A stretch of DNA of 64,000 bases. Source: Gemmatimonadaceae bacterium (lineage in GTDB: Bacteria > Gemmatimonadota > Gemmatimonadetes > Gemmatimonadales > Gemmatimonadaceae). Location of the stretch: the NCBI GenBank assembly GCA_051859245.1, contig JBHYGA010000004.1:384001-448000 (forward strand). The letters are read 5' to 3'. Each line of letters starts with the position of its first letter. Position 1 is the stretch's first letter. The notes beneath the pieces were generated by a model. The model had not been told where the DNA came from. It made no database searches and was given only the letters and a program-made list of their open reading frames with translations. This document shows, in pieces, positions 3,829-41,955 of this stretch. The position numbers and the translations under genes were made by a program.

Positions 3829-3873
3829 CACCCTCGCATTCTGGTGCGACTTTGTTTGCCGTCCGAACAAAGT
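3825..3873 (+). promoter_or_regulatory. sigma70-type promoter (-35 TTGACA 3825-3830) overlapped by ROK-type operator ACTTTGTT-N9-AACAAAGT (3849-3873)
   Basis: Perfect 8-bp inverted arms. A near-identical copy lies at 17395-17419, and a ROK repressor is encoded in the locus. Confidence 0.8.
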
Positions 3874-3933
3874 TTGACTGGGACGGCTAATTGTCCCTCC
3901 CACCCGTCTGCTCCCACCCAGGACGAGGCCCGT

Positions 3934-6900
3934 ATGAGCCCGACTCGAACGCCCCTGACCCGATCACGGGTCAGGCGCCGGTTCGCCCCCGCCGCCGCGC
4001 TTGCCGCGGCGCTGTTGCTCTCGGCGACGCCGACCATCTCGGCTCAGACGCCTCAAAACATCCGTGTGGTCAGCGACGCGTCGGGGGCCCGACTGCAGGT
4101 GAACGGTCGGGACTTCATGGTGCTCGGCATGAACTGGGACTATTTCCCGATCGGCCAGAACTACGCCTACAACTTCTGGGGCCAGTCCGACGAGTTCATT
4201 CGCACGGCGCTGGATCGGGAAATGGCGCTGCTCAAAAGCATGGGCGTCAACACGATCCGTCAATACAACGGCGTGCCACCCAAATGGGTGCGATACATCT
4301 ACGAGAACTTTGGCATCTACACCGTACTGAATCACGCGGTGGGGCGATACGGCGTGACGGTAGGCGGCGCCTACAAGGCCAATACTGACTATTCAGATCC
4401 GCGCGTGCGCGAGCTGCTCAAGGCCGAAGTCGCGGCATTGGTGGAGCAGTTCCGCGGCACACCGGGTCTGCTCATGTACATGCTCGGCAACGAAAACAAT
4501 TACGGGTTGGAATGGAAATCGGCCGAGACGGAAAACCTGCCCGTTGGCGAACGGAACGCGGCCAAGGCGCGGTATTTGTATTCGCTCTTTGGCGAGATCA
4601 TTCGGGACATCAAAACGCGTGATCCCGCGGTGCCCGTGGCAATGGCGAATGGCGACCTGCAGTACATCGACATCATTGCCGCTGAGACCAAGGGTCTCGA
4701 CGTATTCGGCACGAACGTGTACCGCGGTATTTCGTTTGGAAATCTGTTTGCCGAAGTCAAGGAGAAACTCGGGCTGCCAGTGATGTTCACGGAGTTTGGC
4801 GCCGATGCCTACAATGCCAGAGAGCGTCGCGAAGACCAGCTTACGCAGGCACGCTATCTGCTTGGCCAGTGGCAGGAGATTTACGCGCAGTCTGCCGGCA
4901 AGGGCGGCGTTGGAAATGCGATTGGTGGCATGACCTTCCAATGGTCAGACGGGTGGTGGAAGGTAGGACAGGAAACCAATCTCGATGTGCAGGACAACGA
5001 CGCCGGATGGTCGAACGAGGCGTACCGCGAAGATTTCATGCGCGGTGACAACAACATGAATGAAGAGTGGTGGGGCATCATGGCCAAAGGCCCCACCGAT
5101 GCGCAGGGTCACTTTCAGCTGTATCCGCGCGCGGCGTACTACGCGTTGCAGCGCGCGTACGCGCTCGATCCGTACGGAACTGGTACCGACGCGGCACGTA
5201 TTCGCGCGCACTTCGGCGCGATTGCACCGGCGGCGATGGAACTGCTCGCCAACGGCAATCGTGCGGCGCGCGGTGCCGAGATCGGAGATCGGTATCGCAT
5301 TGCTGGCATGCGACTCGAACTGTCGAGCTTCAATACGGGTGGCAGCAACATCAGCACGCCGGCTGAGGGGACGACGCCGAGCCCAACGGCGCGGCCTGCC
5401 GTTCGCGGATTTGATCACCTCGAGTCGTATTTCGTTGATGTGGAAGCACGACCGGCGTCGAATGTGACCGCGATGCTGTCACTCAATGTGACGGGCAACA
5501 TCCCCGACAATCCGATCAACGAACTGTTCTACGAGAATCGCGCCCGCACACGCACGCTGCTGACCGATGGCGGACCGTCTGTAAGCACCGAGGGACTGGA
5601 GCGTTTGCGTGTGTACCGCGCGAGTTTGCGCTGGGACGAGCGCGATTTCCGTCTTGACGGTTTCTATCGTACCGGGCATTACCACTGGGGTTACGAAGGC
5701 GACTTCTTTGGCATGTACCGTGAAGCGAACTACGGCGCCAATATTGACATTTATGGTGGTGAAGCACCGCTCGGCGTGGAGTTCACCGGAAAGCGCGCAC
5801 TGTCGGGACTCAAGCTGGCCGTGGGTCCGGAGCTCTGGTGGGGCGCGAACCCCGCGGTACTCGCGAAGTACCGCAAGCAAGTGGGTCGCTTTATGGTGAC
5901 GGGTGTGTATCAGGAAGATCTGGCGCAACGGGGGGCGACGTCGAGCTCGTTCGCTATCCCGCAGCCGCAAGTGCGCGCCACCACGATGCACGTTGCAACC
6001 ACGGTGGGACCCGCTGGCGTGGAGCTGGGCGGTATCTGGGGTGGCAATACACGTGTGGGTCGCACGTTCCAGATTGCCGATGGTGAGCCCGGCAACTATC
6101 GCGTGCTGCAGGATCGTGTGAAAGACAGCGATGCACTTGGTGCGAAAGCCAAGATCACGATCTCAAGTGGCCGCTGGAACTGGTACGCGCAAGGCGCAGC
6201 GATGGGCCTGGTTGCTGACGGTGGACAAACGTCAACGATGACGTTCACCGGATGGGGACTGAAGGACAGCGGTATGGGCAATCAGTGGAATGCGCTGAGC
6301 GGCTTTACGTATTCTGTTGGCAACGTGCAGATTGCGCCCAACTTTTTGTGGCAGAAGCCGATTGTTGGTCCCGTGCCGAGTGATGTGCCTGCGCCCGGCC
6401 GACCGCGCAACATTCTTGATGATCCGTTCTCGGTGCGATGGAATCGTGAAACGGTTGGCGCGGAGTTGTTGCTCACGTTTGATCCCACGCCGGCGACGTA
6501 CATGCATCTGTGGGATTCCGACACGCGGGAAGACGCGCGCCTCGCGGGCACACTTGGATTCACGTATCGCCACTTGCCCACCACGCAGGACGCCGCGATT
6601 GGTATTCTCGCCGACGGACGCACGTTTTTTGCCTTTCCGGGCGCTGCACCAGCACAGGACCTGTGGGAAGTGCGCAGCCGCGTGGTATCGCGCGTAGGTC
6701 AGGATGTACGTGTGATCGCCAATCTGTTTGGCGGTACAGCACAGGCCAATGGTGACAGCGATCGTTTGCTGCGTCGTTACGGCGGCGAGCTGCGCGCGGT
6801 GCGGAATCAGATCAAAGTGGCTGCCTCGGCCAAGTTCAACGATTGGGGACCGTTCGACTATCATCGCGACTTCAACCTCACGTTCCCCGAGCAGTACATG

Positions 6901-7119
6901 GCCGATGTGTCATACGTGCTCGGCATTCCCAACTGGACAGACGCGCCGGCTACACGGTTTGGCATTCGTGGCACGTGGCGATCACTCGACCGTTTCTCGC
7001 CGCGGTATTGTCCGGCCGAAGTACCCAATGCACTGGGTACGCCCACGTGCGATCCTACTGCTCCGGGTGCGCGCGGTTCAGAGTGGGAGATTCGCACGTA
7101 CCTCACGGTTGGTTGGTGA
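3934..7119 (+). CDS. clan GH-A TIM-barrel glycosidase (GH2/GH158-like, probable beta-1,3-glucanase) fused to C-terminal putative outer-membrane beta-barrel
   Basis: Signal peptide ending ISA|Q. Acid/base motif 'LGNENNY' and nucleophile motif 'MFTEFGAD'. The C-terminal ~600 aa are rich in amphipathic beta strands and end EIRTYLTVGW. Confidence 0.8.
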   Translation: MSPTRTPLTRSRVRRRFAPAAALAAALLLSATPTISAQTPQNIRVVSDASGARLQVNGRDFMVLGMNWDYFPIGQNYAYNFWGQSDEFIRTALDREMALLKSMGVNTIRQYNGVPPKWVRYIYENFGIYTVLNHAVGRYGVTVGGAYKANTDYSDPRVRELLKAEVAALVEQFRGTPGLLMYMLGNENNYGLEWKSAETENLPVGERNAAKARYLYSLFGEIIRDIKTRDPAVPVAMANGDLQYIDIIAAETKGLDVFGTNVYRGISFGNLFAEVKEKLGLPVMFTEFGADAYNARERREDQLTQARYLLGQWQEIYAQSAGKGGVGNAIGGMTFQWSDGWWKVGQETNLDVQDNDAGWSNEAYREDFMRGDNNMNEEWWGIMAKGPTDAQGHFQLYPRAAYYALQRAYALDPYGTGTDAARIRAHFGAIAPAAMELLANGNRAARGAEIGDRYRIAGMRLELSSFNTGGSNISTPAEGTTPSPTARPAVRGFDHLESYFVDVEARPASNVTAMLSLNVTGNIPDNPINELFYENRARTRTLLTDGGPSVSTEGLERLRVYRASLRWDERDFRLDGFYRTGHYHWGYEGDFFGMYREANYGANIDIYGGEAPLGVEFTGKRALSGLKLAVGPELWWGANPAVLAKYRKQVGRFMVTGVYQEDLAQRGATSSSFAIPQPQVRATTMHVATTVGPAGVELGGIWGGNTRVGRTFQIADGEPGNYRVLQDRVKDSDALGAKAKITISSGRWNWYAQGAAMGLVADGGQTSTMTFTGWGLKDSGMGNQWNALSGFTYSVGNVQIAPNFLWQKPIVGPVPSDVPAPGRPRNILDDPFSVRWNRETVGAELLLTFDPTPATYMHLWDSDTREDARLAGTLGFTYRHLPTTQDAAIGILADGRTFFAFPGAAPAQDLWEVRSRVVSRVGQDVRVIANLFGGTAQANGDSDRLLRRYGGELRAVRNQIKVAASAKFNDWGPFDYHRDFNLTFPEQYMADVSYVLGIPNWTDAPATRFGIRGTWRSLDRFSPRYCPAEVPNALGTPTCDPTAPGARGSEWEIRTYLTVGW

Positions 7120-9335
7120 CCACGCGTAGCACAGGTCGTTCCGTGTCTGTGGAGCAGCAGATCACCGCGCTGCTTGCCCGCATGACACTGGACGAAAAGA
7201 TCGGGCAGTTGGCGCAGGTGAACGCGGCCGGCGGTCACGTGCCCGATCACCTGCGTGATGCGATTCGTGAAGGGCGCATTGGTTCGGTGCTGAATGAAGT
7301 GCACGTTGAGACCGTCAACGAGCTGCAGCGACTCGCGGTCCACGAAAGTCGGCTCGGTATTCCGCTGCTGATCGGGCGCGATGTTATTCACGGGTTCACT
7401 ACCGTATTTCCGATTCCGCTGGGGCAAGCGGCCAGCTGGAATCCTGCGTTGGTAGAAGAAGGCGCGCGCATCGCCGCGTACGAAGCGGCCGCGTGCGGTG
7501 TGAACCTGACGTTCGCGCCCATGATCGACATTGCGCGCGATCCTCGGTGGGGACGTGTGGCCGAATCACTCGGAGAAGATCCGCATCTTACCGGCGTGCT
7601 GGGCGCGGCCATGGTTCGCGGCTTTCAGGGTGACGACCTGGCACACGATGGCAGTATTGCCGCGTGTGCGAAACACTTTGCGGGCTACGGCGCAAGCGAG
7701 AGTGGTCGCGACTACAACACCACCAACATTCCCGAGAACGAGTTGCGAAACGTCTATCTGCCGCCGTTCAAGGCGGCGGTGGATGCGGGCGTCGCCAGTC
7801 TCATGACCTCGTTCTCCGATCTGGATGGTGTGCCTGCGTCGGCCAATACCTTCTTGCTCAGACAGGTGCTGCGCGACGAGTGGCGCGCCGATGCCATGGT
7901 GATCAGTGACTGGGAATCCATTCGGCAACTGGCCGTACACGGGTTCACGGAGAACGACCGCGAATCGGCGTACCAGGCGGCCACGGCGGGCGTTGATATG
8001 GAAATGGCCAGCACCACGTACGCTGATCATCTCGCGTCGCTTGTGCGCGAGGGGCGAGTGACTGAACAAACGGTCGATGCGTTGGTGCGGAATGTGTTGC
8101 GCGTGAAGTTTCGTCTGGGATTGTTCGACAACGCGCAAACGAATGCCTCCACGTATGCGCCCGCGGCAAACGCAGAACACTTGAAGGCCGCATACAACGC
8201 CGCGGTAGCGAGCGCGGTACTGCTCAAGAACGACGATTGGGCGCTGCCGCTCGATGTCGACTCGTTGGAGCGCATTGCCGTGATCGGCCCCCTGGCGGAT
8301 GATCCGTACGAGCAACTTGGCACGTGGATCTTTGATGGCGACGCGGCACACAGTCGCACGGTGCTGCAGAGCATTCGCGAGTATGTGGGCGACCGCGCTA
8401 CGGTAGAGTTTGCGCGCGGCGTGCACACCACGCGCAGTCGCGGTCACGACGCGTTTGACGACGCGGTCGCGCTGGCTGCACGCGCTGATGTAACGATCCT
8501 GGTGCTTGGTGAAGAAGCGATTCTGTCGGGCGAGGCGCACTGCCGCGCCGACATTACGTTGCCCGGTGCACAGCAGGCGTTGCTGGAAGCCGTGTCGGCC
8601 ACGGGCACCAAAGTGATTCTGGTGCTGATGGCCGGCCGGCCACTCGCGCTTGAGGAGGCCGTGCGACATGCGCCGGCGATTCTGTATATGTGGCACCCCG
8701 GGACCATGGGTGGTGCCGCGATCTCTGACTTGTTGTTCGGTGTAGCGTCGCCAAGTGGTAAACTACCGGTCACGTTTCCGCGGGTGACGGGGCAAATCCC
8801 TATCTATTACGCGCACAAACACACCGGCAAACCCGCCACGGCTGAGTCATTCATTCACATGGAAGACATTGAGCCGCGGGCGCATCAGGTGTCGGTGGGC
8901 AACACCTCTTTTCATCTGGATGCCGGCTTCACGCCGCTCTTTCCGTTCGGGTTTGGTCTGTCGTACTCGCATGTGGAGTACGAGCACATGCAGTGCAGCA
9001 CGGCAGTGCTCACCATGAGCGGCCGCATTACGATCAGTGCTGACGTGGTGAACGTTGGTCCGCGTGCTGTTGAGGAAGTGGTGCAGCTATATGTGCGCGA
9101 CCTCGTCGGCGATGTGACACGACCGGTGAAGGAACTCAAAGGGTTTACTCGTGTGCGCCTTGAACGCGGTGAACGTCGCCACGTGTCCTTCACACTGACA
9201 CCACGCGATCTTGCGTTTTACGGGCGGGCGCAGCGCCTGATCGTGGAGCCGGGTCGCTTTCATGTCTGGATTGGAGGCAGTTCCAATCCGGAGCTGCGCG
9301 CTGAGTTCACGTTGGTCGACGACACGACGCACTAG
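7116..9335 (+). CDS. bglX: GH3 beta-glucosidase (BglX-like) with FnIII domain, no signal peptide
   Basis: 'MTLDEKIGQL', 'DVIHG', 'RDPRWGR', 'KHFAGYG', 'ISDW', 'PSGKLPVTFP', 'EEVVQLYVRD...RPVKELKGF'. GTGA overlap with the upstream stop. Confidence 0.93.
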   Translation: MTTRSTGRSVSVEQQITALLARMTLDEKIGQLAQVNAAGGHVPDHLRDAIREGRIGSVLNEVHVETVNELQRLAVHESRLGIPLLIGRDVIHGFTTVFPIPLGQAASWNPALVEEGARIAAYEAAACGVNLTFAPMIDIARDPRWGRVAESLGEDPHLTGVLGAAMVRGFQGDDLAHDGSIAACAKHFAGYGASESGRDYNTTNIPENELRNVYLPPFKAAVDAGVASLMTSFSDLDGVPASANTFLLRQVLRDEWRADAMVISDWESIRQLAVHGFTENDRESAYQAATAGVDMEMASTTYADHLASLVREGRVTEQTVDALVRNVLRVKFRLGLFDNAQTNASTYAPAANAEHLKAAYNAAVASAVLLKNDDWALPLDVDSLERIAVIGPLADDPYEQLGTWIFDGDAAHSRTVLQSIREYVGDRATVEFARGVHTTRSRGHDAFDDAVALAARADVTILVLGEEAILSGEAHCRADITLPGAQQALLEAVSATGTKVILVLMAGRPLALEEAVRHAPAILYMWHPGTMGGAAISDLLFGVASPSGKLPVTFPRVTGQIPIYYAHKHTGKPATAESFIHMEDIEPRAHQVSVGNTSFHLDAGFTPLFPFGFGLSYSHVEYEHMQCSTAVLTMSGRITISADVVNVGPRAVEEVVQLYVRDLVGDVTRPVKELKGFTRVRLERGERRHVSFTLTPRDLAFYGRAQRLIVEPGRFHVWIGGSSNPELRAEFTLVDDTTH

Positions 9336-9366
9336 TGCGTACCACCATCAACTTTCTGTTACTCCC

Positions 9367-11139
9367 ATGACCGCAAGACTCGCGGATCGCGAGACAATCG
9401 CCTACGTGGAAGCGCTGCTTTCCCGTCTTACGCTCGAGCAGAAAGTCGGGCAAATGATGCAGCCCGAACGCATGGCCATCACGCCAGACGAAGTGGCGGA
9501 GTACCACATCGGCTCCGTGCTCAGCGGTGGTGGATCGGCGCCGGGTGCGAATACGGCCGCCGACTGGATCGCGATGAACGACGCGTACTGGATGGCGTCC
9601 ATGCGCAACGCACCAGGCCGCGTACCGATTCCGCTGTTATACGGCGTGGATGCGGTACACGGCCACGCCAACGTGCTCGGCGCGACGGTTTTTCCGCACA
9701 ACATCGGGCTTGGCGCCACGCGCGATCCTGACTTGATGGAACGCATCGCGCAGATCACAGCGCGCGAGGTGCTGGCCACCGGTGTGGACTGGACGTTTGC
9801 GCCGACACTCGCCGTGGCCAAGCACATCTACTGGGGGCGCACGTACGAGAGTTTTTCGGATGATCCGGCACTTGTGTCGTCGTATGCCGGCGCGCTCGTG
9901 CGCGGACTGCAGCAGGGTTTCGGTCGCGATGGTGTTGTAGCGTGCGCCAAGCACTGGGTTGGTGACGGCGGTACGACCAACGGCCGCGACCAGGGCAACA
10001 CTGCGATCTCCGAAGAGGAACTGGAGCGCACGCACATGTCGCCCTATTTGCCAGCGCTGAAAGAAGGAGTCCTCACGGTGATGGCGTCGTTCAACAGCTG
10101 GAACGGCGTAAAATGTCACGGCAATCGCTACCTGCTCACCGAGGTTCTCAAGGAGCGCCTGGGCTTTGACGGGTTTGTGATTTCCGACTGGGACGGTGTG
10201 GACTACTTGTCGGATGATCCCGCAGAAGCCGTGGCGATGGCGGCAAACGCTGGCGTTGACATGTTCATGGTCTCAGTCGAGTGGAAGCGCTGTCTGGCAC
10301 ACTTGCTGGAGCACGCGCGGTCGGGTGTTGTGCCCATGTCGCGCATTGATGATGCCGTGCGCCGCATTCTCACCGTGAAGCATCGCTACGGATTGTTCGA
10401 TCGACCGCGTCCCGCGGAGCGGTATTGGTCGACGGAGCCGTGTCTTGGCGCCGCCGAACATCGCGAGGTGGCGCGTGAAGCGGTTCGCAAATCGCTAGTG
10501 CTACTGCAGAACAACAACGGAGTACTGCCGCTGGATCGTTCGGCGCGCATTCTCGTGGCGGGCAAGAACGCGGACAACCGCGGGCGTCAATGCGGTGGCT
10601 TTACCGTGGCGTGGCAGGGCACGAGTGGCAACGAACAGATCGTCGGTGGTACCTCAATCTGGGAAGGCATCAAGCAAGTTGCGCCGCATGCGCACCTCAG
10701 CGTGGATGGCAGCGCGGCCAATGCCGCAGCGCACGATGTGGCCATCGTGGTGATCGGCGAACGGCCGTACGCGGAAGGCATGGGCGACATTCGTCCGCCC
10801 GGTACCGTCGCCCCAGGCTCAAGCCCTGAAGGGCGCACGGCCAAACTTGATGCGTATGGTCAAACCATTGAGCACGCCGTCTCGCATCCCGAAGATCTGG
10901 CCACGATTCGTGCCATTACGCGTCAGGGCATACCGGTGATTGCGGTGCTCGTATCTGGTCGCCCTCTCATTGTAGATGCCGAGCTGTCAGAGACGTCGGC
11001 GTTTGTGGCCGCGTGGTTGCCCGGCTCAGAAGGTCAGGGAGTGGCTGATGTGTTGTTTGGTGATCATCCGTTCACCGGCGTGCTGCCGTTTGCGTGGCCG
11101 CATATTTCGACGCGTTGGCCGCGTGGTTACGGGCTGTAG
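9367..11139 (+). CDS. GH3 exo-beta-glucanase/beta-glucosidase (barley ExoI/ExoP-like), no signal peptide
   Basis: 'QKVGQMMQPER', 'GSVLSGGGS', 'YGVDAVHGH', 'WGRTYESFS', 'CAKHWVGDGGT', 'ISDW', 'GERPYAEG', 'AAWLPGSEGQG'. Confidence 0.92.
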   Translation: MTARLADRETIAYVEALLSRLTLEQKVGQMMQPERMAITPDEVAEYHIGSVLSGGGSAPGANTAADWIAMNDAYWMASMRNAPGRVPIPLLYGVDAVHGHANVLGATVFPHNIGLGATRDPDLMERIAQITAREVLATGVDWTFAPTLAVAKHIYWGRTYESFSDDPALVSSYAGALVRGLQQGFGRDGVVACAKHWVGDGGTTNGRDQGNTAISEEELERTHMSPYLPALKEGVLTVMASFNSWNGVKCHGNRYLLTEVLKERLGFDGFVISDWDGVDYLSDDPAEAVAMAANAGVDMFMVSVEWKRCLAHLLEHARSGVVPMSRIDDAVRRILTVKHRYGLFDRPRPAERYWSTEPCLGAAEHREVAREAVRKSLVLLQNNNGVLPLDRSARILVAGKNADNRGRQCGGFTVAWQGTSGNEQIVGGTSIWEGIKQVAPHAHLSVDGSAANAAAHDVAIVVIGERPYAEGMGDIRPPGTVAPGSSPEGRTAKLDAYGQTIEHAVSHPEDLATIRAITRQGIPVIAVLVSGRPLIVDAELSETSAFVAAWLPGSEGQGVADVLFGDHPFTGVLPFAWPHISTRWPRGYGL

Positions 11140-11214
11140 CACACAGCGTGTGTAGCATCCGAACCCACATTACGACCGAACAACGTCGGGAACACATACC
11201 GTTGCAGTGATCAC

Positions 11215-11240
11215 GAGGGGACCGCACACGCGGTCCCCTC
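11215..11240. terminator. GC-rich hairpin between convergent operons (probable terminator)
   Basis: GAGGGGACCGC-acac-GCGGTCCCCTC, a perfect 11-bp stem. The U-tract is weak. Confidence 0.65.
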
Positions 11241-11253
11241 ACTGCGTTTCGCA

Positions 11254-12804
11254 CTATGTCGCCAACGCCGGTCCAGGATTGCCACGTCGTGCTTCGAGCT
11301 GCTCTCGCACTTCGCGCGCTCGTGCTTCGGTGATCGGATACGTTGCGACGGCCCAGATGGCGAGGCCCGACGTCACCATGGGTATGACGGCATCACACAA
11401 CCGCATCAGGAAGATCGTGTTTTCGGTTTGCGTACCGCCGAGCGAGACATCAAAACCGGTCGCGTTCAGCAGATAGCCGCCGGCCGCGAGCGCTGCGGCC
11501 ATGCCAAGCTTTACCACCCACCAGAAGATCGAGCCGAACATTCCTTCGCGCCGCTGATAGGTCTCCACTTCATCAGCGTCTACAACATCGGCAATCATTG
11601 ATCCCATGAGCGTGAACAATCCGCCAAGCCCAAACGCCATCAGTGGCACCGGCAGCATCAGCAACATCGGATACTTCGGATTATAGCAGAACCACTTGAG
11701 ACCGTAGCCAAGAATGGAAAGGCCTGTGCTCACAAAGAATGCTTTGCGTTTGCCGATTCTTGTGCTGAGCCAGGTAATGAAAAAAATGACGCCGAACGTT
11801 GAGGCCGCGCCGAGCGTACCGGCGTATCCAGCGTAGCGCGCACCCAACTCCTGATCGCCGCCAAACACGTAGTAGATGATCACGTACGTCTGAAACGACG
11901 AGATCATGATGAAGCCATTGAACACGAGGAATGTGGCCACGCACAACTTGATGAACGGCTTTGAGCGCAGCGTAGTGGCAAAGCCCTTGCCGAACTCTTT
12001 CATGTTCCGGCCAAACGCGGCGAAGCGGGATTCGCGCTTGGTCGGCACGTTGGGGTCTGCCGACGCCATCACAAATCGCTCGCGCAGGAAGATTGCGGGA
12101 ATGACTCCGATCATGATCGTGGCGACACCGATACCGATGGCCAGGCCTTTGGCACCGGCGATCTGATTGGGAAACCACGGTTTGTACGTCATGATCCAGA
12201 GAAACCATGGCGACACCAGATACGCGAGCTGACCAATGAAATTCTGCACGCCCATCAGGCGCGTGCGCTCGTGATAGTCGGGTGTGAGTTCGTAACCCAG
12301 CGCAACCCATGGCGTTGCGTAGACTGTGTACGCCAGGTAAAAAATGTTCGAGCCGGTCAAAAAGAACCAGAAATAGAACGACTCACTTCTTCCGCCAGGC
12401 AGCTGCCACAACAGGGCGAAGATGATACCAGACGCAATGGCCCCGGCGAAGATGTACGGGCGACGCCTTCCCCAACGCGACGATGTGTTATCCGAGATGT
12501 AACCCATCATCGGATCAGTGAGCGCGTCGAGAATCCGCGGAAGCGCACCGAGCAAGCCCACCAATGCGGGATTCATGCCCAGTCCGAGATTGAGCACGAT
12601 GACCATGCCACCAATAGCGGCCGCGAGCAGGTTGTTTACGAACGCACCCGACCCGTAGGCGAGCTTTCGCGCAAACGAGATGCGATCCGCCGCGGCGGTC
12701 GAGTACTGCGCGGTGAACCCAGTGTGCCCCGAATCGTCGATGCGCGCGTGCCACGCGGCAATGGCAAGCTTCCAGAGGTTGCGCCCGCGCGAAGCGATAC
12801 TCAT
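11254..12804 (-). CDS. MFS glycoside-pentoside-hexuronide (MelB-like) sugar transporter
   Basis: 'DALTDPMMGYISDNTSSRWGRRRPY', 'ELTPDYHERTRL', 'ADVVDADE...RREGMF'; about 12 hydrophobic helices. Confidence 0.92.
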   Translation of the reverse strand: MSIASRGRNLWKLAIAAWHARIDDSGHTGFTAQYSTAAADRISFARKLAYGSGAFVNNLLAAAIGGMVIVLNLGLGMNPALVGLLGALPRILDALTDPMMGYISDNTSSRWGRRRPYIFAGAIASGIIFALLWQLPGGRSESFYFWFFLTGSNIFYLAYTVYATPWVALGYELTPDYHERTRLMGVQNFIGQLAYLVSPWFLWIMTYKPWFPNQIAGAKGLAIGIGVATIMIGVIPAIFLRERFVMASADPNVPTKRESRFAAFGRNMKEFGKGFATTLRSKPFIKLCVATFLVFNGFIMISSFQTYVIIYYVFGGDQELGARYAGYAGTLGAASTFGVIFFITWLSTRIGKRKAFFVSTGLSILGYGLKWFCYNPKYPMLLMLPVPLMAFGLGGLFTLMGSMIADVVDADEVETYQRREGMFGSIFWWVVKLGMAAALAAGGYLLNATGFDVSLGGTQTENTIFLMRLCDAVIPMVTSGLAIWAVATYPITEARAREVREQLEARRGNPGPALAT

Positions 12805-13592
12805 GGTACGGTCTCGTACACCCGCACCCAGTCCACCAACATGGTTTGCGGAAAGCGCGTTTGTGCATCAGGCGCACCCACAAACGTGCCACCAACGGCC
12901 ACGTTGAGAATGATGTAGAACGGATGGTCAAACACCCACTCACCTCGCACATCACCGCGGCGCACGGTGTGGTAGAGTGTGCCGTCGACGAAGAAATCAA
13001 TGCGGGCATCAGACCATTCGATGCTGAACTCATGGAAATCGTCGTCGAAACGCGCCTGCTGTAACTCGTAGCGCCGCGTGATCGCGTTGCCGCCAGAGTA
13101 TCCCGGTCCATGCACACTACCGAGCACAACCCGCGGCTCCTGCCCGCGGTATTCCATCACATCGATTTCACCAGTCTGCGGCCAGCCGACAACATCAATG
13201 TCTGCACCCAACAACCAGAACGCGGGCCAAATGCCCTGACCAACCGGCAACTTGATGCGCGCTGCAATGCGACCGTACTGAAACTCGCGCCGCCCTTTGG
13301 TGGTGATGCGAGCCGATGTATAGGCCCGTCCTTCGAATGATTCCGCACGAGCGGTAATGGCCAGATTGCCGCTGCCATCAAGCGACGCGTTAGCGGCCCG
13401 ATTGGTGTCGTACTCGAGCTGTGCGTTACCCCAATCGGTGCCCACATCGAACTGCCAGTTGGCAGCGCTGGGCAACGTACCGGCCGTGCCTTCAAACTCA
13501 TCTTCCCAAACGAGCGTCCACGACGGACTGGGATCAGTGCACCCGAAGAGCGAAGCGGCAAGCGCCGCGAGTAGTACAGCCTGTCGGGTCAT
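12801..13592 (-). CDS. GH16 endo-beta-1,3-glucanase (laminarinase) lipoprotein
   Basis: Lipobox LFGC, 'WEDEFEG', 'GIWPAFWLLG', catalytic 'GEIDVME', 'FYIILNVAVGG', 'MLVDWVRVY'. Confidence 0.93.
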   Translation of the reverse strand: MTRQAVLLAALAASLFGCTDPSPSWTLVWEDEFEGTAGTLPSAANWQFDVGTDWGNAQLEYDTNRAANASLDGSGNLAITARAESFEGRAYTSARITTKGRREFQYGRIAARIKLPVGQGIWPAFWLLGADIDVVGWPQTGEIDVMEYRGQEPRVVLGSVHGPGYSGGNAITRRYELQQARFDDDFHEFSIEWSDARIDFFVDGTLYHTVRRGDVRGEWVFDHPFYIILNVAVGGTFVGAPDAQTRFPQTMLVDWVRVYETVP

Positions 13593-13613
13593 GATCGCAG
13601 GGAAGAGGGCGCG

Positions 13614-14864
13614 CTAGCGCGCGCCGATGGTGGGAAAGAGCGACGGATCGTTCAGCGCCGCTTCAAGCACAAGCGTGGCGGCGCCAACAGCAACGCCGAG
13701 TGGGCCGAGTTCACTGTGCCGGATTTCAGACGCGGCAACAGCGCTCACAAACGTCCGACGAAGCACAACTTCACGTAGCGGACCGATCAGTCGGTGACCA
13801 ACGCGCGTCAGCCCACCGCCAATAATGACGGCGGCAGGATTCATCAGGTTGAGCAGCCCCGCGATGGCAATACCGAGGTATTCCGCCGCTTCGCACACCA
13901 CCTGGACCGCGAGCGGATCGTCAGTGATCGCGGCTGATTCGATCGCTTCAATCGTGAGTGACGATGTGCCATGCAGCGATGACGCAGGAAACTCCGGTAA
14001 CAGCGCGCGCGCGCGTTCGACCAAGGCATTCGCACCAACGAATGTGACGAGACATCCCCGGTTGCCGCAGTTGCACACGGCGCCGCGCGGATCAATCGCC
14101 ACGTGACCGATTTCTCCGGCGACGCCGGTAGCTCCGCGCCGCACGCGTCCATCAATCACATGCCCCGACCCAATGCCGGTTGCCACCTTGATGTACGCGA
14201 AGTCATTAAAACCACGGCCCGCTCCCCACCACTGCTCCGCCAACGCGCCAAGGTTCGCGTCATTGTCAATGAAAAGCGGCAGCGCAAACTGCGTTTGCAA
14301 CGCTTCGAACCCGTTGCGTCCACCCCAGTCGGGCATAGCCAGCGGTGAGAGGCGCTCCGGGTGACGCGGATCAACCGGGCTTGGCATGGCGATGCCAATG
14401 CCGAGTAAGCGATTGGGTGCACCGTGCCACTGCGCAATGCAGCGTGCAATCAGCTCGGCCACCAGCGTGCGGGTTCCGGCGGGATCGCGTCGTACAGGCC
14501 ATTCGCGATACTCAGAAGCGAGCACGCGGCCGCGCAGGTTGGTGAGCACTACCGTGATGTGCGTCGCGCCAACGTCCACGCCAATAATGCCGCAGGCATC
14601 ATCCTGAAACTCGAGATTGATCGGTCGTCGTCCGCCGCGCGATTCGCCAATGCCCGCTTCGGACACGAGTTCGGTGGCGATCAGGAATCCCACCAACTCC
14701 GACACGGTGGAGCGCGAGAGATCTTCACGACGCGCGATTTCGGCGCGCGAGATGGTGCGCTCCTTCCAGATCAGTCGCAGTACCGCATCCGCCAACGCGG
14801 ACGGACGCGGTACAACAGTCGGGGCAACACCAACGTCGGCGTCACTCATGATCTGGTCAGTCAT
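13614..14864 (-). CDS. ROK family transcriptional repressor (XylR/NagC-like)
   Basis: N-terminal HTH 'ISRAEIARREDLSRSTVSELV', 'GGRRP', 'DNDANLGALAE', 'GEIGH...CNCGNRGCL'. GGAGA RBS. Confidence 0.92.
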   Translation of the reverse strand: MTDQIMSDADVGVAPTVVPRPSALADAVLRLIWKERTISRAEIARREDLSRSTVSELVGFLIATELVSEAGIGESRGGRRPINLEFQDDACGIIGVDVGATHITVVLTNLRGRVLASEYREWPVRRDPAGTRTLVAELIARCIAQWHGAPNRLLGIGIAMPSPVDPRHPERLSPLAMPDWGGRNGFEALQTQFALPLFIDNDANLGALAEQWWGAGRGFNDFAYIKVATGIGSGHVIDGRVRRGATGVAGEIGHVAIDPRGAVCNCGNRGCLVTFVGANALVERARALLPEFPASSLHGTSSLTIEAIESAAITDDPLAVQVVCEAAEYLGIAIAGLLNLMNPAAVIIGGGLTRVGHRLIGPLREVVLRRTFVSAVAASEIRHSELGPLGVAVGAATLVLEAALNDPSLFPTIGAR

Positions 14865-14907
14865 CGTGTCTCCGTTCAGGCACGGAGAGCACGTGCCGAG
14901 GTCCATG

Positions 14908-17328
14908 TCATTTGTGCAAGAGCACGTTGTCGACATAGACCGTATTCGGATCGGCCACCAGGATCAACTGCGCGAGATGGCCCCTGGTGGTGAGTCCGGT
15001 GAACTGCGAGAGCGGTACATCAAGGCGCGTCCACTGCCCGGTGCGGAGCCCTGGCGTGGTCGCGGCCGTGAGCGTGATCTCATGCTCGCGGTCATCACCA
15101 CCACCGAACGCGCCATTCGCGCCAAAGTCCACCAGCTTGATTTTGAACGTTGCCGGCGCTGCGGTGGGATCTGCTGTCCAGATATCCAGCGAGAAGTGCG
15201 TCATGGCCGTGGCATTGATCGGGCTCGACGTGAACTCAATCCCGGCAAACACCAGATTCGTGTACTTCTTCACCGTGTTGCCAGCAATCTGCACGTCTTC
15301 CACATCAGCGTTGTCCCACTGGGCCGACCACGTGTTCACCGTGACGTTGGTGTAGCTGTCGCTGAACAGTGAAATCACATCGGCCGCGGCAAATGTTGGC
15401 GCGGGCGCTGCGGTTGTTGGCGCGGTCGGCACCACGTTGGAATAGAAATACAGGTTGTCGAGGTAGACCGTGTTCGGATCACTCACGAAGATCAGCTGCG
15501 CCAGATGACCGCGTGTGACCAGCCCGGTGAACGCACTGAGCGGAATGTCCAGACTCGTCCACTCGCCCGTGCGGATACCAGGCGTGGACGCGGCGTCGAG
15601 CGTGAGTTCATGCTCAACATCATCGCCGCCACCGAACGCACCGTTGGCGCCAAAGTCCACCAGCTTGATCTTGAAGATCGCGGGCAACGCAGTGGCATCG
15701 GGGGTCCAGAAGTCCACATGGAAACCCGTCATCGCGGTGGCGTTGACTGTTGGTGCCGTGAACTCGATGCCGGCGAAGGTGAAGTTTGTGTATTTCTTGA
15801 CGTTGTTGCCGGCGATCTGCACGTCTTCAAGATCGGCGTCGTCCCACGGCGCTGACCACGTGGACACCGGCACGTTGGTGTACGTGTCGCTGAAGAGCGA
15901 GATCACACTCGACGCCGGACGTGTGGGAGCCGGCGCGGCGGTGGTTGGAACAGACACCGGTGGTGGCGGCGCCTTGTAGAAATACAGATTATCGAGATAC
16001 AGCGTGGAGCTGGAACTCGTAATGATCATTTGCGCGAGGTTGCCGCGCGCGTTGAGGCCCGTGAACGAGGAGAGCGGAATCTCCACCGTGCTCCACGCGT
16101 TGGCCGTGAGCCCCGACGACACCGTCACTTCATGTTCGCTGTCGTCACCGCCGCCAAACACACCGTTCGCACCGAAGTTGACGAGCTTGACGCGGAACGA
16201 GGAGGTGTTGCGAAGGAAGACATTGAGATGCAGATGCGTCATCGCCGCTGCGTTGACGGTCCGCGTGATGAACTCGATGCCAGCGAACGAGAGATTCGCG
16301 TATTTCTTGGTGTCGTTGCCCGCGATCTGGACATCGGACACATCGGCCATGTCCCAGTCGGCCGACCATTTATCGACGGGCACGTTGGTGTACGCGTTGC
16401 TGAACAGCGAGACGACATCGGCCGCCACGCGTGTTGGTGTGGGCGCCGCCGTGGTTGGCGGGCTGAGCGCGTTGATTGTGACGGCACCCGCGGCCGCTGT
16501 TTCGCCGAGCGCCGCGCTCACCGTGGCGGAGCCCGGTCCGACTACCGAAATGGCGCCGGTTGGTGTTACCGCTGCAACGGCCGCATTTGATGAGCGAAAG
16601 GTGAAATACGCGGCGGCCGCTTCGACCACCACGTCACGCCCGTCCACATCGAAGGTGACCGTGGTGCCGGTCACATCGACTGTGGCGCCGACTTCGCCGC
16701 TGAGTGTGGCCGACGCGATGGCGGGTCGGGTGTTGCGAATCGTGCCCAGTGTCTCAAAACGGATTTCATCAATCCAGAGATCGTACCCCACGCCGTTCTC
16801 CGGCCCCTCGGCAAAGAAGAACATGCCGCGCTCTTCCATGAGTTTGCTGGCCAGTGGAAGTGGAATCACCACTTTTTGCCAGGAGGTTGTGAGCGGAATA
16901 CCGCCGCGCTGGGCGGTAAAGCGCGATTCGCCGGTGTTATCGTTGGCGAAGCCGGCCACGTCGAGCGTGGCACTGCGGCTGGCCCGCGCGTAGAACGTGA
17001 GCGCGTCATAGGCACTCAGGTCGCGCGCCACGTTGGCGACGAAGGCACCGCCGGCGTACGAACCGGCCGGATCGCCTACCGATGGAATCGTGATTTTGAG
17101 CGCCGATGTGCCGCGGAACTTGACGCCGGGATCGATCGCGACCGCGTCCACCTTGGAGCCGGCGAACGCCTGGAATGAGACGCCTGCTGCGTATCCGTCG
17201 CCGAAGATATCCGGTTCGCTTGGGAAGGGCGCAAGATCGAGTGAACTGATATCGCGGCTGCAGGCGGCGAGGATCAGCGACACCCCAACCAACGCGAGAA
17301 CGTGGCGTGAGGACGATCGCGGGTGCAT
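14908..17328 (-). CDS. surface glycan-binding lipoprotein: N-terminal CBM-like domain, Big_2 domain, three tandem carbohydrate-binding-like repeats
   Basis: Lipobox LAAC. Big_2 segment 'FRSSNAAVAAVTPTG'. Three ~165-175 aa repeats starting 'TTAAPxPT..A.DVISLFS..YTNV.V..WSA.WD'. No catalytic motif seen. Confidence 0.75.
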   Translation of the reverse strand: MHPRSSSRHVLALVGVSLILAACSRDISSLDLAPFPSEPDIFGDGYAAGVSFQAFAGSKVDAVAIDPGVKFRGTSALKITIPSVGDPAGSYAGGAFVANVARDLSAYDALTFYARASRSATLDVAGFANDNTGESRFTAQRGGIPLTTSWQKVVIPLPLASKLMEERGMFFFAEGPENGVGYDLWIDEIRFETLGTIRNTRPAIASATLSGEVGATVDVTGTTVTFDVDGRDVVVEAAAAYFTFRSSNAAVAAVTPTGAISVVGPGSATVSAALGETAAAGAVTINALSPPTTAAPTPTRVAADVVSLFSNAYTNVPVDKWSADWDMADVSDVQIAGNDTKKYANLSFAGIEFITRTVNAAAMTHLHLNVFLRNTSSFRVKLVNFGANGVFGGGDDSEHEVTVSSGLTANAWSTVEIPLSSFTGLNARGNLAQMIITSSSSTLYLDNLYFYKAPPPPVSVPTTAAPAPTRPASSVISLFSDTYTNVPVSTWSAPWDDADLEDVQIAGNNVKKYTNFTFAGIEFTAPTVNATAMTGFHVDFWTPDATALPAIFKIKLVDFGANGAFGGGDDVEHELTLDAASTPGIRTGEWTSLDIPLSAFTGLVTRGHLAQLIFVSDPNTVYLDNLYFYSNVVPTAPTTAAPAPTFAAADVISLFSDSYTNVTVNTWSAQWDNADVEDVQIAGNTVKKYTNLVFAGIEFTSSPINATAMTHFSLDIWTADPTAAPATFKIKLVDFGANGAFGGGDDREHEITLTAATTPGLRTGQWTRLDVPLSQFTGLTTRGHLAQLILVADPNTVYVDNVLLHK
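14911..16460 (-). repeat. three intragenic tandem domain repeats (~510-530 nt each)
   Basis: Recurrent 'DVQIAGN..KKY.N..FAGIEFT', 'KLVDFGANGAFGGGDD.EHE' and 'YLDNLYFY'. Confidence 0.9.
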
Positions 17329-17394
17329 CTGCGTGCTCCGAGGAGGGGGCGGAGGTCCGCATCCACGAGCGACCGGGCAGGCGCTGGCAGACGG

Positions 17395-17445
17395 GCTTTG
17401 TTTGGCTAGCGAACAAAGTATGCGGCTCAAGGCGGACGCTGTCAA
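17395..17445 (-). promoter_or_regulatory. sigma70-type promoter (TTGACA-N17-CATACT) overlapped by ROK-type operator (17395-17419)
   Basis: Plus-strand GCTTTGTTTGGCTAGCGAACAAAGT matches the 3849 site. The minus-strand -35 is at 17445-17440 and the -10 at 17422-17417. Confidence 0.8.
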
Positions 17446-17627
17446 GAACGAGTCGGGTGCGAAGAGACGGAAATTGCCCTCGCCTCACGCGGAGGCACCC
17501 GTCATACTTCCCCACGACCCGATGGCGTGTGCCATCGCGTTCCGGCACCGACGGACGAACTGTTCGCTGTCGACCGACGTCCCTCCACTCCCGCGCTGTG
17601 TCGCCCTCGTCCAAAACTGTCCGTCCC

Positions 17628-18305
17628 GTGTCGCGCGCTGCCGCGAAGAACGCTGTCGACGTTGCCCGTCCCTTCGAAGTGCGCCGCTCGCGAATTCAAG
17701 GTCGTGGTGTGTTCGCCACGCAGCAGATTCGCAAAGGCAAGAAGATCATTGAGTATGTGGGTCAGCCGATCACGCATGAAGAAGCGGATCGACGCTACGA
17801 TGATGCAGAAGGTCGCCATCATACGTTTCTGTTCGTGTTGAACGACGACACTGTGCTTGATGCGCGCTACGGCGGAAACGATGCGCGATTTCTGAACCAT
17901 TCCTGCGATCCGAACTGCGAGACGGAAATCGACAACGACCGGATCTGGATCAAGTCGATCAAGCCCATCGCTCCCGAAACAGAGCTGGTGTACGACTATC
18001 GTTTCGAATGGGACGATGCCTACGAGCCGGAAGACGTGCGCTATTACGCGTGTCGTTGCGGCAGTGCGAAGTGTCGAGGCACGATTTTGCGCGTGCCCGT
18101 GTACCTGCGGAAAACGGTGCGTGAATGGTTGGCGGGCAACGATGTGCCCAAGCCACGCAAGCCGCGCAAGAAAGTGGCGAAGAAAGTGGCGAAGAAGGTG
18201 ACGAAGAAGGCCACTCGCAAGGTTGGAAAAACGGGTGCGAAAAAAGCGGTCCGGAAAACCACTCGCAAAGCCGCGAAAAAAACCACGAAGAAAAACGCGA
18301 CGTGA
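17628..18305 (+). CDS. SET domain protein-lysine methyltransferase with post-SET and histone H1-like C-terminal tail
   Basis: 'SRIQGRGVFA', 'IIEYVG', 'ARFLNHSCDPNC', 'ELVYDY', post-SET 'CRCGSAKCRG', then a 51-aa K/A/T/V tail. Start uncertain (GTG 17628). Confidence 0.9.
   Translation: MSRAAAKNAVDVARPFEVRRSRIQGRGVFATQQIRKGKKIIEYVGQPITHEEADRRYDDAEGRHHTFLFVLNDDTVLDARYGGNDARFLNHSCDPNCETEIDNDRIWIKSIKPIAPETELVYDYRFEWDDAYEPEDVRYYACRCGSAKCRGTILRVPVYLRKTVREWLAGNDVPKPRKPRKKVAKKVAKKVTKKATRKVGKTGAKKAVRKTTRKAAKKTTKKNAT
18168..18215 (+). repeat. 12-nt tandem repeat x4 encoding KKVA/KKVA/KKVT/KKAT
   Basis: aagaaagtggcg aagaaagtggcg aagaaggtgacg aagaaggccact. Confidence 0.8.
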
Positions 18306-18865
18306 TGCACACACCGGGCTCGGATGTCGGCAAGGTCTCAAGCACGCGCATGTACACTGGGCGCGTGATTTCGCTAGATGTTGACGAAGTCCGCTTTCCT
18401 GATGGCTCAATAGGCTCGCTGGAAATGATTCGGCATCCGGGAGCCAGCGCGATCGTGCCACTCATTGGTGCGCCCGACGATCCGGACCCGGAGCTCGTGC
18501 TGATCCGACAGTATCGGTATGCCGCCGAGCAGTATTTGTATGAAATACCGGCCGGCCGGCTGGATCCGGGCGAAACGCCAACGGATTGTGCGTCGCGCGA
18601 GTTGCTGGAAGAGACCGGGTACACGGCGGAGCGGGTCATTCCGCTCTTCACGATGTTTACGACCCCCGGGTTCACCGACGAGAAGATCCATCTCTTTCTC
18701 GCGACCGGCCTCACCGCCGGCCAGCACCAGCGTGAAGCCGATGAGTTTCTCGAGCTCGTGCCGACGAAGCTCTCTCACGCCCTGCGTATGATCGAGCAAG
18801 GCGAGATACAGGACGCGAAAACGGCCCTCGCACTGCTGTATACCTCGGCGTTCAAGCGGGGCTGA
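18305..18865 (+). CDS. Nudix hydrolase, ADP-ribose pyrophosphatase (NudF-like)
   Basis: 'RHPGAS', 'RQYRY', Nudix box 'EIPAGRLDPGETPTDCASRELLEETG', 'TPGFTDE', 'IQDAKT'. TGATG coupling to the SET gene. Confidence 0.9.
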   Translation: MHTPGSDVGKVSSTRMYTGRVISLDVDEVRFPDGSIGSLEMIRHPGASAIVPLIGAPDDPDPELVLIRQYRYAAEQYLYEIPAGRLDPGETPTDCASRELLEETGYTAERVIPLFTMFTTPGFTDEKIHLFLATGLTAGQHQREADEFLELVPTKLSHALRMIEQGEIQDAKTALALLYTSAFKRG

Positions 18866-41106: not shown

Positions 41107-41955
41107 ATGACCGCTGACAACGCGTTGTTGATTGCGCTTGGTCTGTTCGCGCTCGTGGGCAGCGGTGCCGCCGTGTACTGGTGGCTGAACCGTACGCCAT
41201 CAGGGTACCGACGAGATCGGGACGCTGAGCTGCCGCTGTTTTCGGTTTCGATGCCCGACTCGCGTCGCACGCCACCGCGTCCCGCCACGCCGCCGGCGGC
41301 CGCGCCAGTGGTGCCCAAGTCCGCCGGAAAGGCGCCTGAGACGCCGGTGGCTGTTCCTGCGGCGGCGGCGCCCAAGCCGGCGAAGAAAAGTTCGGAGCCG
41401 AACATTATTGAGATTTCGACCGCAACGGCCGCGGCGCCGGTTGCCACGCCGGTTGCCACACCGGTTGCACCGCCGGTCGCCACTCCAGTCGCCACGCCGC
41501 CTGCGGCGGCAGGAGTCACGAATCCCGCGCCCACGCCGGAGCCGGTTCTCGCCCACGGCGTGCCTGGATCCGTGGTCGAAGGGCATCTGTTGCGGTTCAG
41601 CGTGCCTCAGGAGGGCACGCTGCAGTTTCTGCCCGGACGTCTCGAAGTGTCGGGCGGTCTGGACGCCGGACGTGAGATCCGCTTTGTCCGCGTTCCTGGC
41701 CCGGATGGGACACAGGTCACATTTGGGCGTAGCGAAGGCCCGGCCTATCGCCACATTCAATTGCGCGAGGCCACGGTGAGCCGATTGCACGCCCGCCTCA
41801 CGCTGCGTGAGGGCACGTGGCATCTGACCAACCTCTCGTCGACCAACCCCGCCGTATATAACGGACGCATCTTGAACACCGGCGAAGAACAGCCGCTGTC
41901 CGATGGTGACCGGATCGAGATGGGCGAAGTACTTTTCGGTTTCCGTAGCCGATAA
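41107..41955 (+). CDS. membrane-anchored FHA domain protein
   Basis: N-terminal TM helix, Pro/Ala/Thr linker, FHA motifs 'FGRS', 'VSRLHARL', 'NLSSTN', 'LSDGDRIEMG'. Confidence 0.9.
   Translation: MTADNALLIALGLFALVGSGAAVYWWLNRTPSGYRRDRDAELPLFSVSMPDSRRTPPRPATPPAAAPVVPKSAGKAPETPVAVPAAAAPKPAKKSSEPNIIEISTATAAAPVATPVATPVAPPVATPVATPPAAAGVTNPAPTPEPVLAHGVPGSVVEGHLLRFSVPQEGTLQFLPGRLEVSGGLDAGREIRFVRVPGPDGTQVTFGRSEGPAYRHIQLREATVSRLHARLTLREGTWHLTNLSSTNPAVYNGRILNTGEEQPLSDGDRIEMGEVLFGFRSR
41437..41496 (+). repeat. 12-nt tandem repeat x5 encoding PVAT/PVAP
   Basis: ccggttgccacg ccggttgccaca ccggttgcaccg ccggtcgccact ccagtcgccacg. Confidence 0.8.

Follow-up and report, generated by a model that had tools for sequence, protein, structure and literature searches.

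Nearly all bacterial SET-domain enzymes characterised to date are host-directed effectors. The chlamydial enzyme NUE, a type III effector, was reported to be inactive on Hc1 (PMC2904774). Its automethylation has been placed at K209 and K210, outside the SET domain and near the C-terminus, with an effect on catalysis; automethylation has also been reported for Clr4. As reviewed (PMC3980110), cpnSET binds Hc1 and Hc2 and methylates Hc1, and the small prokaryotic SET proteins Go1-SET (Methanosarcina mazei) and BaSET (Bacillus) act on the DNA-binding protein MC1-alpha and on many lysines of histone H1, respectively. The description in that review gives neither of the latter two a fused H1-like tail, which sets them apart from the protein considered below by description rather than by sequence. 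Basic tails themselves are known from several systems. The lysine-rich domain of HupB is reported to be needed for nucleoid association (PMC5676037), the lysine repeats of Streptomyces TopA to confer processivity (PMC7398561), and the H1-like tail of AlgP to position polyphosphate granules (PMC9239181). Methylation of HBHA/LBP reportedly leaves heparin binding unchanged and makes the protein resistant to proteolysis (PMC4023394). Searches of titles and abstract openings, mostly in non-subscription literature, returned no paper on a bacterial SET domain fused to an H1-like tail and none pairing Gemmatimonas with a SET domain.

The window analysed here, a stretch of 64,000 nucleotides from a Gemmatimonadaceae bacterium, carries such a fusion on its forward (+) strand, to which all window coordinates below refer. 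The initial annotation gave the gene as 17628..18305. This frame is indeed open from GTG to the TGA ending at 18305 (225 aa), but translation probably begins at an in-frame GTG further upstream, at 17598, which orthologs L002, L003 and L013 retain; L002, the closest ortholog, lacks the GTG at 17628. The likely full extent is thus 17598..18305, coding for 235 amino acids. A variable N-terminal extension (17598..17672), often basic among the orthologs, is predicted to be disordered (pLDDT ~62 for residues 1-20) and is followed by the SET domain (PF00856, 17700..17999; residues 25-124 of the 225-aa frame), matched with E 3.7e-26 and 92 bits against a cut-off of 22.4. The motifs GRGVFA, EYVG, RFLNHSCDPNC, ELVYDY and the post-SET CRCGSAKC were all found. 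Within RFLNHSC (17886..17906), which we take to provide SAM binding and a zinc cysteine, the Asn and Cys occur in 150/150 aligned homologs and the His in 149/150; N100, C103, Y134 and the three Cys of the post-SET CxCGxxxC zinc motif (18051..18074) are invariant in the same 150. In the alignment, the first Tyr of ELVYDY (17982..17999) falls on the first Tyr of ELTYDY in MLL1, at the Phe/Tyr switch, and presumably corresponds to MLL1 Y3942. It is kept in 137 of the 150 homologs, and the second Tyr in all of them. Because a Tyr at this switch is reported to give monomethylation (PMC3887211), the enzyme is a predicted protein-lysine monomethyltransferase. The core has a dN/dS of 0.02–0.09 in nine of 11 ortholog pairs within the genus (the other two are saturated, and ortholog L005 lies outside the set), which points to strong purifying selection on an enzyme that looks intact.

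The closest solved structures by sequence are MLL-family SET domains (E ~1e-23, ~37% identity). An AlphaFold2 model of the protein, with a confident core and an overall pLDDT of 85.9, found its best fold match in MLL1 (2w5z, E 3.5e-14), with PDB matches at E 1e-13 to 1e-14. The Pfam match, the GxG and pseudoknot motifs, the post-SET zinc motif and the predicted fold all place the protein among the SET-domain lysine methyltransferases, and the intact SET and post-SET regions first read from the sequence are thereby confirmed. Motifs, zinc cysteines and the Tyr switch are shared with SET1/MLL (KMT2), but the window protein is a stand-alone enzyme of 26 kDa without reader domains, to which a helix specific to its clade and a basic tail are added. 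The helix (18099..18131; pLDDT >95 for residues 168-178) is conserved in sequence and lies between the post-SET motif and the tail; the linker motif of this region is present in 121/121 close homologs (the best 120 of 2,140 matches plus the query). In the same model the tail has a pLDDT of ~57 and no secondary structure. When the SET domain and its own tail were predicted as a complex, with SAM and zinc included, the median score was 0.36 and the best control 0.23, a result given no weight for or against any reading below.

The tail (18150..18302) comprises the last 51 residues and is rich in Lys, Ala and Thr. Recounting bore out the composition first noted, namely 20 Lys, 5 Arg and no Asp or Glu (net +25); at the genome Lys frequency of 2.2% the binomial chance of this Lys count is ~2e-20, a rough figure because residues within repeats are not drawn independently. 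A 12-nt tandem repeat, likewise noticed at the outset, accounts for 41 of the 153 nt of the tail (18168..18208, 3.4 copies, score 68). Elsewhere, the strongest tandem repeat of the window, also with a 12-nt unit, is found at 41435-41499 (5.4 copies). Among 14 genomes of the same genus, 12 have an intact SET ortholog, G003 (64% complete) has a split one, and G004 (84% complete) yielded the paralog only. The initial annotation had called for a check of the tail in close orthologs, where it proved neither absent nor random: all 13 orthologs found possess it, at 31-63 aa with at least 10 Lys per 25 residues and 0-2 acidic residues. The split ortholog (L022, G003:C16) runs over two frames through an apparent internal deletion, which may be real or an assembly error.

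In the best 120 of 2,140 database matches plus the query, a set biased by the inclusion of the tail in the query, the tails measure 19-72 aa and contain 36% Lys and 18.5% Ala, and 84 of the 121 are free of acidic residues. Their lysines follow a KKxx spacing (lag 4 = 0.67, lag 2 = 0.05), seen as a period of four in the window tail. Only a proximal KPRKP-type stretch recurs across the 120 tails (KPRK 106 times, PRKP 86 times); beyond it both the sequence and the length of the tail differ between homologs, no lysine appears to hold a fixed position, and ARKS/T-type motifs occur in only 14/120. The free variation in length and sequence, together with the use of both Lys codons (198 AAG, 65 AAA), is as expected of a charge-based function. 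Judged from these alignments, the tail is a real, selected feature in which charge and spacing, rather than a target site, appear to be kept. Its traits are those of Hc2-type proteins, being Lys/Ala-rich, acid-free, repetitive and predicted disordered; the HC2 profile (PF07382) did not match the SET protein at E 0.1, and matched 5/150 homologs at E 0.01. By every feature checked, the protein is a SET-family member that resembles Hc2-type proteins without matching their Pfam model.

A short His motif of the HxxxRHA type was observed within the low-complexity extensions of 38 of the 120 close homologs (P0002-P0121), in 15 only N-terminally, in 23 only C-terminally and in none at both ends. It occurs at loci L015, L017, L038, L057, L059, L095, L103 and L120, with related forms in other genera, and is absent from the window protein; possibly it is a metal-binding or partner-binding motif.

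The SET core was matched in 116/120 genomes of the family. At E 1e-25 it was present in 29/31 family genomes and 0/74 genomes of the sister family, the corresponding numbers for any SET domain being 30/31 and 13/74. For the extensions, a core-only query was used and the best 150 of 13,172 cluster representatives were taken, of which 124 reach the end of the core. Defining a K-rich extension as at least 8 Lys per 25 residues with at most one acidic residue, 26 of these 124 have one (21 C-terminal, 5 N-terminal) and 98 do not; 48 of the 124 reach net +9 per 25. Among the representatives with a complete core in the same best 150, the extension is net positive in 100/112 and at least +10 in 63/112. 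The basic extension of SET relatives may sit at either end, or be reduced to about four residues. As background, 10 of 3,723 gene calls of the genome pass the Lys threshold and 40 pass net +9, these calls being crude (our own gene finder missed the TopA tail) and the former number rising to 12 frames when any ORF is counted. Over ~570 kb flanking 135 SET loci, the only two other genes to pass the Lys threshold encode a topoisomerase and S21.

A FastTree phylogeny of 248 SET cores was built on 140 columns, with split and partial cores left out; many of its forks are unresolved. The K-rich state, present in 55/248 rows, changes at least 29 times, compared with 45-55 times in 200 shuffles. Since the changes are fewer than in the shuffles and yet number at least 29, the K-rich extension is inherited in part, with repeated gain or loss. 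The query lies in a clade of 21 rows that includes named Gemmatimonas loci; together with the names of homologs and the Atlas, this places the organism among the Gemmatimonas-like Gemmatimonadaceae. Among 80 named loci, chosen with the tailed query, K-rich extensions were counted in 6/29 from Gemmatimonadota, 2/2 from Myxococcota and 3/38 from Pseudomonadota. Locus L020 (genome G021), which lacks a K-rich tail, is included in the ortholog, family, flank, neighbourhood and tree counts, and none of the claims made here rests on it. An Atlas search gave SET clusters only. The same genome encodes a second SET paralog at G000:C1:1287049-1287477 (L032, L153), which is more divergent and lacks a lysine tail, and a second SET match was seen in all 14 genomes of the genus.

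The neighbours of the SET gene differ by lineage. Immediately downstream, the ATG of a NUDIX hydrolase gene (18305..18865) overlaps the SET stop codon; the NUDIX and sigma factor genes beside SET constitute local synteny. The NUDIX protein was considered as a functional partner and rejected, the two genes being adjacent only within the home clade and in a small number of other genera. At six loci of betaproteobacterial type (L116:2-2791, which is K-tailed, L109, L133, L137, L138 and L141), a divergent topoisomerase gene adjoins the SET gene. Scans for promoters and terminators gave counts that were not above those in shuffled sequence. Upstream, at 3844-17445, lies an apparent beta-glucan utilisation cassette (gene names assigned by eye) with two beta-glucosidase-like genes, a sugar transporter, a GH16-like enzyme, a ROK-type regulator and an 845-aa repeat surface protein. 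In most relatives of the genus this site upstream of SET is taken by an M16-peptidase-like gene, so that the cassette has the appearance of an insertion, one that G002 shares.

Lysine-rich tails are also found on other proteins of this genome. Ten were scanned, namely TopA, Ku, SWIB, NYN-LOTUS and EVE proteins, a beta-lactamase-family hydrolase, a DUF1801 protein and three without a confident family, one of which is the free-standing H1-like protein described below. The first five of the ten carry domains that we take to have nucleic-acid-related roles. The 4-mers common in SET tails cover 0.61 of the SWIB and 0.59 of the TopA tail, compared with 0.19-0.27 after shuffling, and 0.12-0.28 of Pro-rich KAPA-type tails against 0.16-0.20 in shuffles. 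The same 4-mers cover 0.68 (0.19 shuffled) of a free-standing H1/Hc2-like protein of 121 aa without a Pfam match (G000:C8:90752-91117; L143:353-718). Its gene, unlinked to SET, is equipped with a ribosome-binding site and followed by an inverted repeat, and the gene region with the same start is present in 13/14 genomes of the genus, coding for 110-171 aa where complete. SWIB occurs in 45/74 sister-family genomes, among which the SET subfamily is found in 0/74, and a strict co-occurrence of the two was therefore rejected. Of 18 SWIB loci inspected in the sister family (drawn from 30 of 82 listed matches), 15 are K-tailed, 13 of them in genomes without a SET match, so that such tails can exist without the SET enzyme. 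Nor are they confined here to nucleoid proteins, since the beta-lactamase-family hydrolase (G000:C4:1072881-1074347; L146), probably exported to judge by eye from its signal-like N-terminus, ends in a Lys/Val/Pro-rich tail that is basic in 14/14 genus loci and K-rich in seven. A protein of 341 aa (G000:C4:144795-145820; L147) combines a long Asp/Glu-rich half with a Lys/Ala/Pro-rich half and has no Pfam match.

Compared with the systems described above, the window protein resembles cpnSET and NUE as a bacterial SET enzyme with basic residues after the SET domain, and Chlamydia, like the present genome, has a free H1/Hc2-like protein; the genome here also has a SWIB protein. In NUE, however, the basic patch is only some six residues long and H1-like sequence resides in a protein of its own, whereas here an H1-like tail of 50 residues is fused to the product of a family-wide resident gene. 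Actinobacterial HupB/HupS, TopA and Ku and the Pseudomonas proteins AlgP and PhaF share an acid-free, Lys/Ala-rich, disordered tail of variable length on a folded domain. Unlike those of the HupB/AlgP type, the window tail is attached to a lysine methyltransferase and is built on KKxx with few prolines, not on PAKK/KPAA.

We tentatively favour, at somewhat less than an even chance, a SET monomethyltransferase in which the tail serves as a generic polycationic anchor to nucleoid DNA and which methylates other lysine-rich proteins. The tail would act as a sequence-independent positive anchor, at either end and of any length provided that charge is kept, and would hold the enzyme on nucleoid DNA, where it could methylate the lysine-rich proteins of the nucleoid. 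Among candidate substrates the free H1-like protein ranks first and would be the main target, with the SWIB and TopA tails as second candidates. Some methylation by the enzyme of its own tail is plausible and, because NUE automethylates at K209/K210, even likely, but it would be incidental or a fine adjustment rather than an on/off switch. The anchor is favoured by the intact SET domain under purifying selection, the tails of all 13 genus orthologs, the recurrence of basic extensions across the subfamily and the conservation of the H1-like gene, as well as by the nucleic-acid-related domains on five of the ten tailed proteins scanned, the shared 4-mers and the precedents of HupB, TopA, cpnSET and Go1-SET. 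Against it stand the tail on the hydrolase, K-tailed SWIB in genomes without SET, the absence of a K-rich extension from 98 of 124 relatives (among the best 150 of 13,172) and from the genome's own paralog, the unlinked position of the H1-like gene, lineage-specific neighbours, the inactivity of NUE on Hc1 and the polyphosphate and RNA roles of similar tails. The initial annotation had inferred a nucleoid-targeted methyltransferase carrying its own substrate as an automethylation switch for DNA binding. Its intact SET domain and conserved tail hold, and nucleoid targeting, by analogy with HupB and TopA, appears the most likely role of the tail. The switch does not fare as well, and we consider it improbable. 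The tail is conserved and H1-like and, in the model, long and flexible enough to reach the active site, and a bacterial SET enzyme, NUE, automethylates a C-terminal basic patch. Methylation nevertheless keeps the positive charge, with heparin binding by HBHA/LBP reportedly unaltered, and a predicted monomethylase acting on 20 interchangeable lysines, none of them apparently fixed in position, would make a poor switch. The extensions of relatives, moreover, can be N-terminal or of some four residues, and tails of this kind occur in genomes without any SET match and on a probably exported hydrolase.

Other polyanions might be bound instead, the tail anchoring the enzyme to RNA, ribosomes or polyphosphate granules and the substrate being something other than a chromatin protein. 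The positioning of polyphosphate granules by the AlgP tail, the reported RNA binding of PhaF, which has a similar tail, and the tails on the EVE, NYN-LOTUS and probably exported hydrolase proteins of the same genome would suit such an arrangement. It is rather unlikely, given that the 4-mers of the SET tail are common to the H1-like, SWIB and TopA sequences and not to Pro-rich KAPA-type tails, and that a topoisomerase gene adjoins SET in the six betaproteobacterial-type loci. That the tail is chiefly a substrate or pseudo-substrate of the enzyme carrying it, and that methylating it regulates catalysis or blocks proteases with DNA binding unaltered, must also be counted as doubtful. Loss of the automethylated residues of NUE is reported to lower histone methylation, methylated HBHA/LBP is protected against proteolysis, the centre of the SET core is acidic (-13 over residues 45-145) opposite the +25 tail, and the His motif occurs in either extension of homologs. 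Core acidity, however, does not follow extension charge (rho -0.02, n 112), a conserved target lysine or context is lacking, with ARKS/T-type motifs as scarce as noted above, and AlphaFold2 leaves the tail unplaced, as it does the His motif of homolog P0082 (pLDDT ~55), which is weak evidence.

The tail could also have grown out of a short basic C-terminus by low-complexity expansion throughout the lineage, tolerated while doing little itself, a reading to which we would give little weight. Its length varies from 19 to 72 aa with visible tandem duplication, a dozen such tails exist in the genome, the DUF1801 tail is K-rich in only 1/11 loci, and many SET proteins of the family end in a few basic residues. 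A tail kept in every genus ortholog found although synonymous sites are near saturation, the absence of acidic residues from most of the tails in the best 120 of 2,140 matches plus the query, and the strong K-rich enrichment on the SET subfamily relative to genome and flank background argue otherwise. An effector role is unlikely, and that the protein is secreted, with a tail that directs it to the nucleus or nucleolus of a eukaryotic host, is hardly to be believed. Characterised bacterial SET proteins are mostly effectors, and the C-terminal basic patch of NUE is reported to aid nuclear localisation, but the NCBIfam match to LegAS4/AnkI is weak (37.5 bits against a cut-off of 550), so that the model for secreted SET nucleomodulins stays below its cut-off. 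The SET gene is near-universal in the family and stands beside housekeeping genes. Among the families searched (VipB, VirB4 and FHIPEP), no dedicated effector system was found in this 99.9% complete genome, VipB and VirB4 giving no match and FHIPEP being represented by a single gene, presumably flagellar.

A 2022 review (PMC10117894) treats it as an open question whether free-living bacteria methylate lysines of their own chromatin proteins. The nucleoid-anchored methyltransferase that we favour bears on this question through a small gene that is near-universal in the family, whose product has a tail that can be removed and a specified candidate substrate that the genus conserves; the fusion of SET and tail, being common in databases, is in itself less surprising. 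A much wider reading, which we regard as distinctly unlikely, would have chromatin-like methylation widespread in free-living bacteria, with a SET writer coupled to H1-like repeats and a self-mark on the writer's own tail that controls the timing of the enzyme. Were it true, the H1-like repeats would be fused to the writer in many lineages, the Gemmatimonas-like genera among them, and would come from a separate minigene elsewhere, and the KKxx repeats of the free H1-like protein, SWIB, the topoisomerase and the writer's own tail would be methylated. The basic extension would then have been the raw material for the nuclear-targeting patches of effector SET proteins.
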